Part shown: piece by piece, positions 23,046-29,564 of the stretch
Layout of the letters: each line of letters opens with the position of its first letter
Position numbering within the stretch: the first letter of the stretch is position 1
IMG/VR virus record: IMGVR_UViG_3300044513_004213
Location: 1 to 34,375 of that record
Reading direction: 5' to 3' (one strand)
DNA length: 34,375 nucleotides
DNA from: a virus
Taxonomy: Duplodnaviria > Caudoviricetes
Position numbers and translations under genes: made by a program
The notes under the pieces: model-generated
The model's database searches: none
What the model was told of the DNA's origin: nothing
The model's input: the letters and a program-made list of their open reading frames with translations, nothing else

Positions 23046-23392
23046 ACTTTCTCATTTAACTCCGTATAACAAATAGTGCAGTCAAATAACTGGCTATAAC
23101 CATTGGAAAAACAAAGCACATTATCGCCGTCCTTCAAAAACACTTCCAAATTACCAAGAGCAATTAGGTTATGGCTCTCATTTGGTTGTATTAGTACGTT
23201 TCTTACTAAAAAATTCTCTTGCTTAGGGTCGGTTAAAAGCCGAACTATTTGTAAATTGATCCTTATATTATCTTCCGATATGTTACAAATATTGACCGCA
23301 TTTAAAAACGTAGGCTTTTCAACACTAAGCAGTACTGTATTTTGATCCGCTAACTGATCAAATATTAAGCTTTCGTAGCTGACAAAGTGCAT
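23042..23392 (-). CDS. Small beta-rich putative virion protein
   Basis: ICN...I.INL...FLVRNVLI.PNES....L.DGD.V....FDCTICYTE pattern; coupled to portal. Confidence 0.55.
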   Translation of the reverse strand: MHFVSYESLIFDQLADQNTVLLSVEKPTFLNAVNICNISEDNIRINLQIVRLLTDPKQENFLVRNVLIQPNESHNLIALGNLEVFLKDGDNVLCFSNGYSQLFDCTICYTELNEKV

Positions 23393-23595
23393 AATTTATC
23401 TGTAAATTCTTTGAACTCAACGAGTTTATCAGCAAACATTTTGATGTCTTCTGCACTAGGTGATTCATTTATAAGCTTTTTTATATAAAGCTGCTTGCCA
23501 GTTTGCTTTAAAAACTCTGATACTAAATCAAACCTATGCATTTCATTAGATATGTCAAAACCAGCTAATAAATTTTTTATTTCTACTTTTTCCAT
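23365..23595 (-). CDS. Hypothetical protein
   Basis: 76 aa, GAGGA RBS, overlaps next gene. Confidence 0.65.
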   Translation of the reverse strand: MEKVEIKNLLAGFDISNEMHRFDLVSEFLKQTGKQLYIKKLINESPSAEDIKMFADKLVEFKEFTDKLCTLSATKA

Positions 23596-23673
23596 TTTGT
23601 CCTCTTTTTTCGATTGATTAGGCTGTATATACTAATTAAGATATTTTTCATATAACTATCCTATTAACTTTTT

Positions 23674-23835
23674 TCAAGCTGCAATATTCTCTTTAATTAA
23701 TTTTATATCATTTAAAACTAAACTCTTACGCTCTCCAGTTGCGATTGCTTTATCACATGACCAATATAGAACTCCATCACTATAAAGAGCTTGTACATAT
23801 TTAGGTAAGTTTTGAAGTATTTCATTTTGATTCAT
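23674..23835 (-). CDS. Small hypothetical protein (53 aa, MNQNEILQNLPKYVQALY...)
   Basis: Manual translation; AAGAGG RBS. Confidence 0.55.
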   Translation of the reverse strand: MNQNEILQNLPKYVQALYSDGVLYWSCDKAIATGERKSLVLNDIKLIKENIAA

Positions 23836-27100: not shown

Positions 27101-27255
27101 TTAAAGTTGATAAAATCTAATCTCATATCAATTAAAATAGGAGAAGGTATAGCAACACCTTCTTTATTACCTACCAACACATAATCATGGTCTGATAATA
27201 TCCTACCAGTAACTGGTGAAATAAAATTATGTAAAGGATTAAACTCCATATTCAT
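24136..27255 (-). CDS. Large fibre/spike protein with C-terminal peptidase S74-like intramolecular chaperone
   Basis: Ala/Ser/Thr-rich Stf-like stretch, two DAATKNYVD motifs, SSKNIK...LPTVKYTFKD...GVISEEL..VLP..V, terminal coiled coil. Confidence 0.8.
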   Translation of the reverse strand: MNMEFNPLHNFISPVTGRILSDHDYVLVGNKEGVAIPSPILIDMRLDFINFKNRFDTLTSADLIIGHKNKELPKAQSLNDLANGFMFNTGGIISTTNDIPLPNLEYGHLWIGDVHKKPIQTKILQIDNLPNLENNKIWVGENGDRPVAKTSIKIDNLPTLGVTSIPTPTGGFIGKVWEGTSSGRPEESNIVGEMFADIIALNARFLSGEFIMGDAVIQATYPKSQFLVNLADGMLKKTGKTLQHAVSGTDYVDTLDNPIERIIPVWKSNNSKILHNTGVSIDEQNRISGIDTVNTKFVIASDQITSNTSIFGLNNVGTRELKIYDYWNGAGRLTKSVNFKGPTKLNSNLTWILPDAISSTGQALVDKGNNASGERILGFSNISPYDATYIIKQPNAQLTNAQVLSELGTGITKIIANGEFAIAVADQDYATKETLEQIKTETELYKNQASASATEATTAAGEATASATAASGSATAAGVSAAGAAASAIAAATSASSASSSASSADTSAGNAKTSEENSAAYLNQLLNTSITLTGDVLGSGPLKDPITLTMNLGSELNALSTFSQNGIMVRTDTGNYTGRSLIAGTGINITNADGVADNPIIGLGIVPINTLENYPNDANKFLNGAGQWQQQKDDWWNILPTNEVNFNNQQIKNCRFLQLNSPDNTWMGIAFHNNIGRRFVFETDSEENGNFYLYSDMTNKDIWRYHAKAPIDYFNINCLLSMTGNKIENVAEPTNNSDAATKNYVDNKHLGSFIRDMNFQTIYHLAEPILGWDAATKNYVDNKVGSKLEYITTGDTNFPIRFTRALHVDNYYDSFIREYGTYGYLNSGGGTGTVSDSPVYDIKCNGRIRVSEVNVWSSKNIKNIIEKGDIVNAEAASIIQSLPTVKYTFKDQTLDGKGIYYGVISEELKDVLPDYVKSGEFKFAGNIMLPAKAKITNKDIIEININNIKSKHPDIINKTIKIISDKEGFEGEVISLDTNVIQVKTKFDLMLTTHEFDVFVYGTYEDCPTVAKTHLLEMSLCALKNVLSRIEKLETNRK
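24904..25038. repeat. 30-bp exact direct repeat, 105 bp period (AATKNYVDNK x2)
   Basis: tttattatcaacatagttcttagtagctgc at 24904-24933 and 25009-25038. Confidence 0.9.
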
Positions 27256-28331
27256 GCTATTAAATGCCCTAAGAAGTTGTTAATATTCTCCGTATCATTA
27301 TTAAAATGAGTATTTGCTGTAACCTCCATATAATCTAAAAAAGCAACATCACTATTATCTAACTCAGTATCTAGATTTTTATCTAATTTCGGTTGAAATC
27401 TATAATAATATAATTGCTCTAATGTATTGTTAGCTCTAAATTTCAAATTAAAATCAACTGATTCTTGACCACCAGTAGAAGCTATATCGAATAGAGAGAA
27501 TATTTTAGCAACCCCATTATCTGCATTACTGGTATTTTCAGATTTTAAAAATGTATTAGCCTCATCAAAACCCATTTCACCTATACCTGTACCAAGTGAT
27601 AATACACAAGCTCTATTAGCAGTTGGTTTTAAAGCTTTACCTAAACTTAACGCTATTTCAGACGGGTTATTTTGATAAACTCCTCCATCTATGTAAATAT
27701 GTTCTGGTGTACCAAATTTATGAGAAGGGAGATAAACAGGAGCAGCAGAAGTAGCACGAGCTACATCAACTATAGACTCATCTTTACCAATAAACATATT
27801 GCTGTTACTATAGTTTGAAAAATTAACATAAGTACTAGTATCATCCTGATATGCTGGAATTATTACTTTAGTTTTTAAATCACGCATTTTATCTGTACCA
27901 AAATTATCAACTAATACTTGGTTTAATATCACATGACCATAATTGCTATCTTGAGGATATCCAGTTGTTGGGCAAGCTGATTTATAGAATGGATCATTTT
28001 GGCCAATTAATATAATTTTCTGAGCAATGTTTGGTCTGTTTGAATCATAGTTAGTGTTACATTGCCCTACATCTAAAGCACCACGAATAGTAAATACTCT
28101 TTTAGCTTTCTCTCTGAAAAAAGGTTCTAAATATTCAGGGCTTCTTCCATATGCATAGGCAAGAGCTTGTATTCCGCCGATAGAAGTTCCTGTGATAACA
28201 TCAAAATATTTCCATAATTCATCAGATTTAATACCCCATTGCTGAATAAATCTTTGCAAAAACTTTAATGATAAGTAACCTCTTACGCCACCACCATCTA
28301 ATGATAATATTCTTACTGTATTTATATCCAT
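27252..28331 (-). CDS. Patatin-like phospholipase
   Basis: ILSLDGGGVRG, GTSIG nucleophile elbow, ATSAAP, YIDGGV catalytic Asp, LSLGTG. Confidence 0.96.
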   Translation of the reverse strand: MDINTVRILSLDGGGVRGYLSLKFLQRFIQQWGIKSDELWKYFDVITGTSIGGIQALAYAYGRSPEYLEPFFREKAKRVFTIRGALDVGQCNTNYDSNRPNIAQKIILIGQNDPFYKSACPTTGYPQDSNYGHVILNQVLVDNFGTDKMRDLKTKVIIPAYQDDTSTYVNFSNYSNSNMFIGKDESIVDVARATSAAPVYLPSHKFGTPEHIYIDGGVYQNNPSEIALSLGKALKPTANRACVLSLGTGIGEMGFDEANTFLKSENTSNADNGVAKIFSLFDIASTGGQESVDFNLKFRANNTLEQLYYYRFQPKLDKNLDTELDNSDVAFLDYMEVTANTHFNNDTENINNFLGHLIA

Positions 28332-29564
28332 TTAAAATCTACCTGCATTTAATTTCATTTTCTCGTAATTAACTAGTGACCTCTTCATGGAGCGTTCTAA
28401 GGCATAGCGTAGAGCATCGATTCCGTGATTATTTTTATCTTCAACCTTGTTAGTAATATCACCGCTTCTCTCATCTACTTTAAATGAATATGTAGCAAAC
28501 TCATTAGCTATATTCTTACACCTTTTATGAATAATTACTTTATCAAATGACCTGATATACTCTATACCATCTTCAATTGAACCTTTGCCCTTATCTGCAC
28601 CATAAACACTAAAACCATATTCTCTTTTATTGATATGAGATATTGTTTCAGGACGTGAACTGTCTGCATATATGGCATTGCCTCTTAAGTCTGGTAAATG
28701 TTGTATTAAAAAATCTCCTATATTATCTATCTCAAGCTTTGTTTGAAAAGCCTCGTGTGTAATATAAAGTACATTATCTTTAGCGTAGCATCTCACACCA
28801 GCTGTTGGGTCTTGTGAATACCCAAAATCTAAACCAAAGTATTTATGAACTGATGTATCTTCTTCGAATTCTTGTTCAATCCACTTATCTTTAAATACTT
28901 GGGCATCTGAATGCTCTAAACACTCACCTTCCCACACATGTCGATAATAACCATAATCTCTTTCCTTATCACGCTCCATTTCATCTTTTAGAACATCTGG
29001 AAAATAAGGATTATCTTGCCAATTTACTTTTACTCTGTAAGTGTTTTTAGGGACTTCTTCAGGCTCAATAAACTCTCTATATAAAACATCAGACTTATTC
29101 TTTGGATTCATTGTTATCCAAATCTCAGAGCCTTCATTTCTAATAGTTGGCTTAATTATTTTCCAGCTTTCAGCGGATAAAGTGTCCGCCTCTTCAATCC
29201 ATAAGTGAGTAATACCTGCCATAGATTTGATACTAGATATGTTGTGATGTAACCCCTTAAAGATAAAGCGACTTTCTGATAAAGGGCATTTGATAGCATC
29301 ATGCGTTATTTCATAATAATTAGTCAATCCCAGTGATTCTATCCTCTGCTTTAATAACGAATGAACGCTATCTTTAATTGAGTTTTGGAACTCACGACCA
29401 CATAGTACTAAGCAAGATTTTTGTATTGCAGTAAGTAATAAACTATCCGCTACAGCAAAAGACTTACCGCTTCCACGTCCGCCATATAGTATTTTATATC
29501 TATATGGTTCAAATAGTGGCTCCTGCCACCACTCAATCCTTAAGTCTGTGTTCTGGCTTATCAT
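28332..29564 (-). CDS. terL: Terminase large subunit (PBSX family)
   Basis: YGGRGSGKS, WIEEA, MNPK, GLDFGYSQDPTA, DKNNHGIDALRYA. Confidence 0.97.
   Translation of the reverse strand: MISQNTDLRIEWWQEPLFEPYRYKILYGGRGSGKSFAVADSLLLTAIQKSCLVLCGREFQNSIKDSVHSLLKQRIESLGLTNYYEITHDAIKCPLSESRFIFKGLHHNISSIKSMAGITHLWIEEADTLSAESWKIIKPTIRNEGSEIWITMNPKNKSDVLYREFIEPEEVPKNTYRVKVNWQDNPYFPDVLKDEMERDKERDYGYYRHVWEGECLEHSDAQVFKDKWIEQEFEEDTSVHKYFGLDFGYSQDPTAGVRCYAKDNVLYITHEAFQTKLEIDNIGDFLIQHLPDLRGNAIYADSSRPETISHINKREYGFSVYGADKGKGSIEDGIEYIRSFDKVIIHKRCKNIANEFATYSFKVDERSGDITNKVEDKNNHGIDALRYALERSMKRSLVNYEKMKLNAGRF

Follow-up and report, generated by a model that had tools for sequence, protein, structure and literature searches.

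Why would a tailed phage keep a gene for a predicted lipid-degrading enzyme directly in front of its tail fibre gene? The question is raised by the virus record IMGVR_UViG_3300044513_004213 of IMG/VR, analysed here whole (34,375 bp, linear, CheckV completeness 84%) and called the window below. In this window the gene of a predicted patatin-type lipase and that of a long tail fibre stand between the genes of the large terminase subunit (TerL) and of the portal. Comparison with related loci revealed that what stays constant is the pairing of patatin with fibre, whereas the placement of the two genes between terL and portal does not.

The patatin-fibre pair in the window and in related loci

The pair and the genes on either side of it were assigned as follows (amino acids, aa; open reading frame, ORF).

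29533..29991, minus strand: small terminase-like gene, first of the late operon (phrog_309 terminase small subunit, E 7.8e-14)
28332..29564, minus strand: TerL (PF04466, E 2.4e-44; PF17288, E 1.9e-18; phrog_3717, E 9e-71)
27252..28331, minus strand: patatin-type lipase, 359 aa, single domain (PF01734, 96.3 bits)
24136..27255, minus strand: long tail fibre, 1039 aa (phrog_6578, E 5.4e-08; phrog_3279; phrog_1640)
27076..27255, minus strand: N-terminal anchor of the fibre, conserved over about 60 residues (39-sequence alignment A2)
24502..24654, minus strand: Peptidase_S74 domain (intramolecular chaperone) at fibre residues 868-918 (PF13884, 25.5 bits, cut-off 22)
23864..24124, minus strand: 86-aa gene 3' of the fibre, with homologues (25-42% identity) after the fibre genes of many related loci on several backbones
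23674..23835, minus strand: 53-aa ORF, an open frame
23365..23595, minus strand: 76-aa gene, with weak homologues at the same place in related loci
23042..23392, minus strand: 116-aa gene that travels with the portal (90.5% identical copy immediately upstream of the portal in contig G001:C44, see below)
21234..23045, minus strand: portal, P22 type (PF16510, E 1.2e-54; phrog_156, E 3.6e-59)

The terL, patatin and fibre genes are arranged head to tail and co-oriented in one late operon (terS, terL, patatin, fibre, small genes, portal). A preliminary description of this DNA had read the junctions correctly: on the minus strand the terL stop ends at 28332 and is followed without a gap by the patatin ATG (28331), four nucleotides (ATGA, 27252-27255) belong both to the end of the patatin gene and to the start of the fibre gene, and terL and portal are separated by about 5.3 kb (23046-28331, 5,286 bp). 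The AT-richness that it had noted by eye was confirmed by a scan of GC content at third codon positions (GC3), with 0.161 for patatin and 0.133 for the fibre against 0.263 for terL, 0.242 for portal and 0.18-0.30 for the tail genes (7.9-17.8 kb). GC3 values below those of the neighbours are as expected of a unit moving together.

The S74 domain of the fibre passes the Pfam cut-off and assigns the protein to the class of S74 tail fibres or tailspikes; its chaperone role is predicted from the family. Seven anchor residues were invariant in A2 (S13, P14, G17, Y25, G29, P39, D43), and the sequence diverges past residue ~60-100. The first 60 to 100 residues are common to nearly all loci and the later parts match in 10-36 loci each, i.e., judging from the alignments, the anchor is conserved and the distal part variable, as is usual. 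The AlphaFold2 monomer model of the first 160 residues was poor (pLDDT 60, pTM 0.29), and a complex prediction of the patatin (alignment A1) with fibre residues 1-100 (A2), run with controls absent, gave a score of 0.00 that speaks neither for nor against contact. The 86-aa gene behind the fibre had no match in Pfam, PHROG or NCBIfam.

A search of viral contigs for patatin loci with the single sequence gave no match, and the loci were obtained by searching with A1, an alignment of 40 patatin sequences. In IMG/VR, 251 stretches encode a relative, of which the best 80 were kept. Among genomes taken as one per prokaryote species, 205 stretches encode a relative and 80 were kept; only five of these 80 are close (37-51% identity over the full length), the others being at or below 33%. 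The five close loci belong to a Rickettsiaceae metagenome-assembled genome (MAG), to Candidatus Megaera venefica, and to Flavobacteriaceae, Bacteroidales and Cytophagales MAGs. Together with MAnkyphage_25.80 (OP381185.1), a Megaira polyxenophila phage, the 80 IMG/VR stretches and these five genome contigs make up 86 loci (L002-L087).

In each of the 86 loci, the first ORF behind the patatin on its strand was a fibre homologue, identified by an automatic rule in 85 of them and from the ORF list in L046; the identical 4-nt overlap was present in 67 loci. Such recurrence indicates that the pair is not due to chance. From the fibre side, a search of IMG/VR with the anchor alignment detected 181 relatives, of which 80 were kept, and a patatin of the same clade lay directly upstream of the fibre in 74 of these 80. 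Thus, the linkage on which the preliminary description had staked its interpretation is conserved from both directions.

The genes in front of the pair are far more diverse. TerL precedes the patatin in 44 of the 84 loci that have an upstream ORF, 23 times as a 478-495-aa type (MAnkyphage included) and 21 times as the type of the window. The other upstream neighbours are a 620-695-aa protein following a phrog_146 portal (17), small proteins of 74-158 aa (12), a 129-aa protein following capsid-type genes (6) and other genes (5). Also, a close relative of the window carries the pair elsewhere. In contig G001:C44 of the Rickettsiaceae MAG (42,689 bp, the last 60 bases recurring at the start as in a circular assembly), the tail proteins are 81-94% identical to those of the window and several early-arm genes 72-90%. 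There the terminase gene, the copy of the 116-aa gene and the portal gene stand side by side with no pair between them, and the patatin (51% identical) and fibre genes are placed after the last tail gene. This layout indicates that the pair moves as a unit and that the terL-portal site is one of several, so that the block is not hard-wired between terL and portal as had been proposed.

Behind the constant patatin, the fibre genes vary widely in number and length. Many relatives (L004, L007, L019 and others) have the fibre split into two or three successive ORFs, and in L018 (6379-9267) two consecutive ORFs each start with the fibre anchor. The same pair was also seen in a much larger phage, contig G409:C2 (57,766 bp), which has another head module (terL, a 484-aa portal-like gene, a 650-aa gene) and many more tail genes. 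The patatin of this phage is 58% identical to that of MAnkyphage, and its oxyanion loop reads G-G-S-T-K-G.

The enzyme and its relatives

The patatin gene product matched PF01734 well above the cut-off of 27.7 bits, its residues 9-228 covering the whole profile (1-191 of 191). Patatins are recognized by an oxyanion loop of the form G-G-G-x-[RK]-G, a nucleophile motif G-x-S-x-G and a catalytic aspartate in D-G-[GA]. All three were found in the translation, in agreement with the preliminary description: D-G-G-G-V-R-G at 12-18 (GGGVRG 13-18), G-T-S-I-G at 48-52 and D-G-G at 215-217. G13-15, S50 and D215 were invariant across the 40 sequences of A1. The protein is thus a predicted lipid acyl-hydrolase with its Ser-Asp dyad and oxyanion loop kept. 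A protein database search gave 830 relatives at E <= 0.001, the best 120 of which are all 335-401 aa long and 44-93% identical at 99-100% query coverage.

By sequence, the best family matches were effectors of CBASS (cyclic-oligonucleotide-based anti-phage signalling systems): the PADLOC effector phospholipase PDLC00758 matched residues 4-354 (E 1.1e-54), and NCBIfam CBASS_lipase (NF041079) scored 157.6 bits, below its equivalog cut-off of 200. The nearest solved relatives by profile were CapV-type chains (E 2.3e-37), followed by plant patatin, CapE, iPLA2-beta and PlpD. The AlphaFold2 model of the enzyme (pLDDT 90.7, pTM 0.91) gave a consistent picture in Foldseek, with template-modelling (TM) scores of 0.68-0.76 for CapV (9kh6, 8zr9, 9jeh), 0.71 for plant patatin and 0.66-0.79 for CapE, and weaker ones for PlpD (~0.5), VipD (0.40) and ExoU (0.25); the best match among viral models was a Catovirus patatin (TM 0.69/0.77). 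Like CapV and CapE (including 9iom), the window patatin is a single-domain protein in the range of ~330-360 aa with a Ser-Asp dyad. It differs from CapV in about 40 extra residues of the phage clade (positions 84-128 in the window protein). An excerpt of PMC12480259 gives the cyclic GMP-AMP (cGAMP) contacts of AbCapV as F147 (main chain), K149, D159 and E207. In a HMMER alignment, K149, D159 and E207 of AbCapV map to S (S172, invariant in A1), Q or K, and L, so none of these side chains appears to be kept.

In a quick maximum-likelihood tree of 99 patatins, with SH-aLRT as its only support measure, the 24 rows of the phage clade formed one branch (support 100, stem length 1.85). This branch is apart from two patatins of Wolbachia phage WO and from three chromosomal patatins of Rickettsiaceae (573-609 aa; G409, G002, G001), which lie on a long branch of their own. 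Such long chromosomal patatins of ~570-610 aa were compared as the putative Pat1/Pat2 type of Rickettsia. The tree shows a separate clade only, and it is in sequence and modelled fold that the enzyme is closest to CapV and plant patatin. Kinship with the patatins of phage WO and of Rickettsia, both brought up in the preliminary description, was therefore not recovered: the WO proteins are 23-28% identical and in a separate tree group, and the Rickettsiaceae proteins are longer and apart.

Possible roles of the lipase

Tentatively, and conceding that it may well be wrong, we read the patatin and the long S74 fibre as a portable two-gene late cassette, in which the lipase is likely made with the fibre, is predicted to act with it on a lipid membrane at the attachment site and is possibly borne by the virion. 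The 4-nt overlap would couple translation of the two genes and so lead to joint production of enzyme and fibre. The enzyme would hydrolyse acyl esters of membrane lipids, at entry and not at lysis, and it may ride on the particle; candidate targets are the outer membrane of the bacterium and a eukaryotic membrane derived from the host. From an overlapping pair kept across backbones and positions, from invariant catalytic residues and from a lysozyme encoded elsewhere, we infer an enzyme made with the fibre and working at a lipid membrane during infection.

Several observations weigh against such a cassette. Both the location of the patatin on the particle and its lipase activity are predicted only, and adjacency is also expected from the simple co-inheritance of two late genes. 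Near-duplicate loci are many (e.g., L008/L009, L032/L033, L036/L037, L079/L080, L081/L082), and independent cases are therefore fewer than the counts suggest. No patatin-fibre fusion of at least 630 aa was detected at E <= 1e-30, which is weak evidence. Finally, the patatin is absent from six of the 80 fibre-anchor loci, all of one lineage (L243, L250, L254, L256, L259, L261; fibre start at 3007), in which the fibre (37-40% identity across residues 3-364 or 3-384) comes after genes of 350, 115 and 153 aa. It follows that the fibre can be built without the enzyme and that the enzyme is not its docking piece; a role of the patatin as docking adaptor of the fibre is ruled out by these six loci.

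The lysis genes of the window bear on whether the enzyme serves release. They lie in the other arm of the genome, the lysozyme being identified by its family and the remaining genes read by eye.

3709-3969, plus strand: holin-like, small hydrophobic protein
3966-4424, plus strand: lysozyme (PF00959, E 6.4e-31)
5973-6221, plus strand: i-spanin-like, N-terminal membrane span
6151-6393, plus strand: o-spanin-like lipoprotein with an L-S-G-C lipobox, overlapping the i-spanin-like gene

If the readings by eye hold, the phage has an ordinary lysis set. With the lysozyme and the likely holin and spanins encoded there, the patatin is not replacing an endolysin, and we discarded it as an endolysin stand-in. 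The enzyme could nevertheless be a late helper of egress, i.e., a soluble lipase that is freed at lysis and breaks the lipids of the bacterial envelope, or the eukaryotic membrane round an endosymbiont, so that the progeny leave. Its gene is indeed within the late operon, its translation shows by eye no signal peptide or membrane span, and the relatives are linked to intracellular Rickettsiaceae; moreover, WO phages carry a patatin in what an excerpt of PMC9203015 proposes as a lytic cassette. Even so, we judge an egress role unlikely, though it deserves to be kept in mind: besides the lysis genes listed above, it has to face a patatin that is never beside lysis genes and always beside the fibre in the 86 loci, even where the pair is relocated, and WO patatins that are distant in identity and lie elsewhere in the tree.

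Two other roles would leave host membranes aside or turn the enzyme against other phages. Patatin-fold enzymes can transfer acyl groups, and the protein might thus be a maturation factor that acts on the fibre as acyl-transferase or esterase, or helps its assembly. The fixed gene order and the 4-nt overlap would suit such a factor, and so would the fact that only the first 60-100 fibre residues are conserved along with the patatin. However, the same fibre anchor is made in six loci that lack a patatin, the fibre has its own S74 intramolecular chaperone, and a precedent for such a role was not found in the literature examined; we hold it to be improbable. We give even less credit to a CapV-like signalling lipase, with which the phage would exclude its rivals or divert the cyclic nucleotides of CBASS to a decoy. 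The families and solved structures that match best are those of CBASS lipases, the first over the full length and the second with Foldseek TM of ~0.7. On the other side stand the score under the equivalog cut-off and the loss, inferred by alignment, of all three mapped cGAMP side-chain contacts. Also, no CD-NTase or other nucleotidyltransferase family was found among the 42 window ORFs scanned with Pfam; the gene sits in a structural operon with terL and the fibre as neighbours. In the quick tree the phage clade falls outside the Psychrobacter and gammaproteobacterial small patatins (SGGGYRG start), a group which we take to be of the CapV type.

The preliminary description had gone further and proposed a two-host entry system. 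This amounts to a special case of the cassette reading in which the target membrane is eukaryotic: a virion lipase beside the fibre would open the phagosome or the symbiont-containing membrane of a protist or animal cell and so give a tailed phage access to intracellular bacteria. It is plausible by analogy with polinton-like viruses of protists, in which, according to an excerpt of PMC12220804, patatin is fused to carbohydrate-binding discoidin domains and read as a factor of cell entry or endosomal escape. The likeness, one of description, is the combination of a binding module with a patatin lipase; the polinton-like viruses are eukaryotic viruses with both parts in one protein, whereas the window has two proteins in a tailed phage. 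For the moment, we find this form of the idea rather doubtful.

The virus, its host and related systems

By its gene content the virus is a short-tailed phage of the MAnkyphage-type podoviruses, to which the window adds a new member. The minus strand holds one late and replication arm (7888-34113), running from replication genes, SSB (PF00436), a terS-like gene, TerL, patatin and fibre through four small genes to portal, a scaffold-like gene and capsid (phrog_334), with tail genes over the next ~11 kb. On the plus strand, the other arm (1-7.9 kb) contains pentapeptide-repeat, RecT, ParA, Cas2-like, ProQ/FinO-like, lysozyme, DUF1064 and outer-membrane beta-barrel genes, and is completed by the genes of a YoeB toxin and a Panacea-type antitoxin. 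A tRNA scan of the window found none, megablast of the 8.3-kb block against GenBank phages gave zero matches, and a scan of 22800-30700 for promoters and terminators stayed at the shuffled expectation (41 versus 42.4 and 2 versus 2.8, respectively).

Several other features of the window were recorded. A 95-aa Cas2-like ORF (PF09827, E 1.9e-06; PADLOC Cas2, E 1.7e-11) lies directly 5' of the ProQ/FinO-like gene (PF04352, E 2.2e-11) at 2833-3629 on the plus strand. The YoeB/ParE-type toxin gene (PF06769, E 1.3e-14) overlaps the SocA/Panacea antitoxin gene (PF13274, E 7.8e-16) at 6636-7518 on the minus strand. After a nozzle-like gene, three tandem paralogous tail genes of 340-360 aa (12490-15616, minus strand) are 24-39% identical to each other's homologues and have weak tail-fibre PHROG matches; because of these genes, short fibres are probably present on the virion as a second set, in addition to the long fibre. 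A 111-aa ORF whose match is confined to the beginning of the DnaB C-terminal domain (PF03796, profile positions 2-75 of 255) directly follows a 490-aa ORF without family (31074-32884, minus strand), and the two may be a split or unusual helicase-primase. RecT and a ParA-type partition ATPase are encoded at 334-2625 on the plus strand, and no integrase was found among the window ORFs scanned. These features, together with the overlapping contig ends and missing bacterial flanks in G001:C44, G409:C2 and G234:C136, suggest that the phage may have a plasmid-like prophage state.

The closest described relative came from a search of 50,697 GenBank phage records with the patatin, in which eight records matched: MAnkyphage_25.80 (44.9% identity over 100% of the query), six Wolbachia WO records (23-28%) and one uncultured phage covering 29%. 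The MAnkyphage paper is George et al. 2023 (Curr Biol 33:1982), cited in PMC10925606 and in the reference list of PMC12644861. Its genome (38,448 bp, circular) is annotated with terminase, patatin, tail Fiber (1520 aa), three small genes and portal, in the same order and on the same strand as in the window. The patatin-fibre overlap is likewise 4 nt, the patatins are 45% identical over their full length, and the portal, capsid and nozzle-like proteins are 43%, 43% and 44% identical. In all, 15 ORFs match window proteins in the same order (24-46% identity), and the early arm shares a recombinase, lysozyme, DUF1064 and a Panacea antitoxin with toxin, this last pair being at the equivalent place. 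However, the fibres are alike only in the first ~277 residues (24% identity), the MAnkyphage terminase is of the other (485-aa) type, and its ankyrin-repeat genes have no counterpart among the window ORFs scanned.

A Rickettsiaceae-type intracellular host is probable. The MAnkyphage record names Candidatus Megaira polyxenophila as host, and among the nearest phages, those whose host is named or known from binning indicate endosymbionts of the Rickettsiaceae; thus, a host that is intracellular and not free-living, as first supposed, appears likely. Genomes were tallied for A1 matches at E <= 1e-60. In the family of G002, matches were found in 4 of 130 genomes, i.e., in 2 of 128 beyond the two starting genomes, and in a sample of the order of G001 in 2 of 301, one of them new. 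In the controls, one of 301 genomes of the Flavobacteriaceae family and one of 301 of the Bacteroidales order matched, each being the starting genome itself. Among the new genomes, G371 contains a contig that matches the window at 78% nucleotide identity across ~3 kb, and a patatin that is 93% identical. In G001, G409 and G234 the contig ends overlap and bacterial genes are missing from the flanks; these contigs are free phage genomes assembled or binned with bacteria, which is weaker host evidence than an integrated prophage.

The outer-membrane beta-barrel gene (PF13505, 4737-5384, plus strand), which follows the lysozyme region and has a signal-peptide-like start, has homologues of 28-32% identity on chromosomal contigs of two Rickettsiaceae genomes (G409:C1, G002) and a 50% copy on a phage contig of G003. 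Of three Bacteroidota genomes, two have none and the third has it only on the phage contig. The GC content of the 86 loci is 27-41% (median 34%). Near-identical DNA was present in runs of 13 studies labelled mollusc, oyster, estuary, sediment, biofilm or sponge metagenome, three of which runs hold at least half of the words; none of the listed holders was an RNA run. ESM Atlas look-ups with the outer-membrane-protein gene and SSB gave no usable host signal.

Phage WO offers a further parallel. It is, as the virus of the window probably is, a phage of intracellular Rickettsiales, and like the window it has a patatin-type lipase near structural genes, for which a membrane role is proposed in an excerpt of PMC9203015. 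According to the same excerpt, the WO patatin adjoins holin-like and ankyrin genes next to the tail module, an endolysin-holin-spanin system is reported absent from WO prophage genomes, and the patatin is proposed in its place. In contrast, the partner of the window patatin is a fibre, its neighbours are terL and that fibre, and the window encodes a lysozyme next to a likely holin and spanins.

The pair is already annotated in the public MAnkyphage record. No paper describing it as a conserved unit was found in the full-text literature, a search outside of which supplements and the MAnkyphage paper lie. What is new here is the two-way count of the pair, the six loci without patatin, the pair at another site in a close relative, the reading of the lysis genes, the mapped loss of cGAMP contacts and the tallies of genomes alongside controls. 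The excerpt of PMC9203015 raised for WO the question of how phages whose bacteria are obligately intracellular pass eukaryotic membranes. With its constant partner, a single fibre gene, the lipase is a concrete candidate for crossing such membranes. A culture in which to test it exists already (MAnkyphage in Cryptomonas sp. SAG 25.80), for which the patatin-less natural variants could serve as controls. If true, the virion lipase would be to phages what the capsid phospholipase is to parvoviruses, and would answer how such phages cross two kinds of cells.

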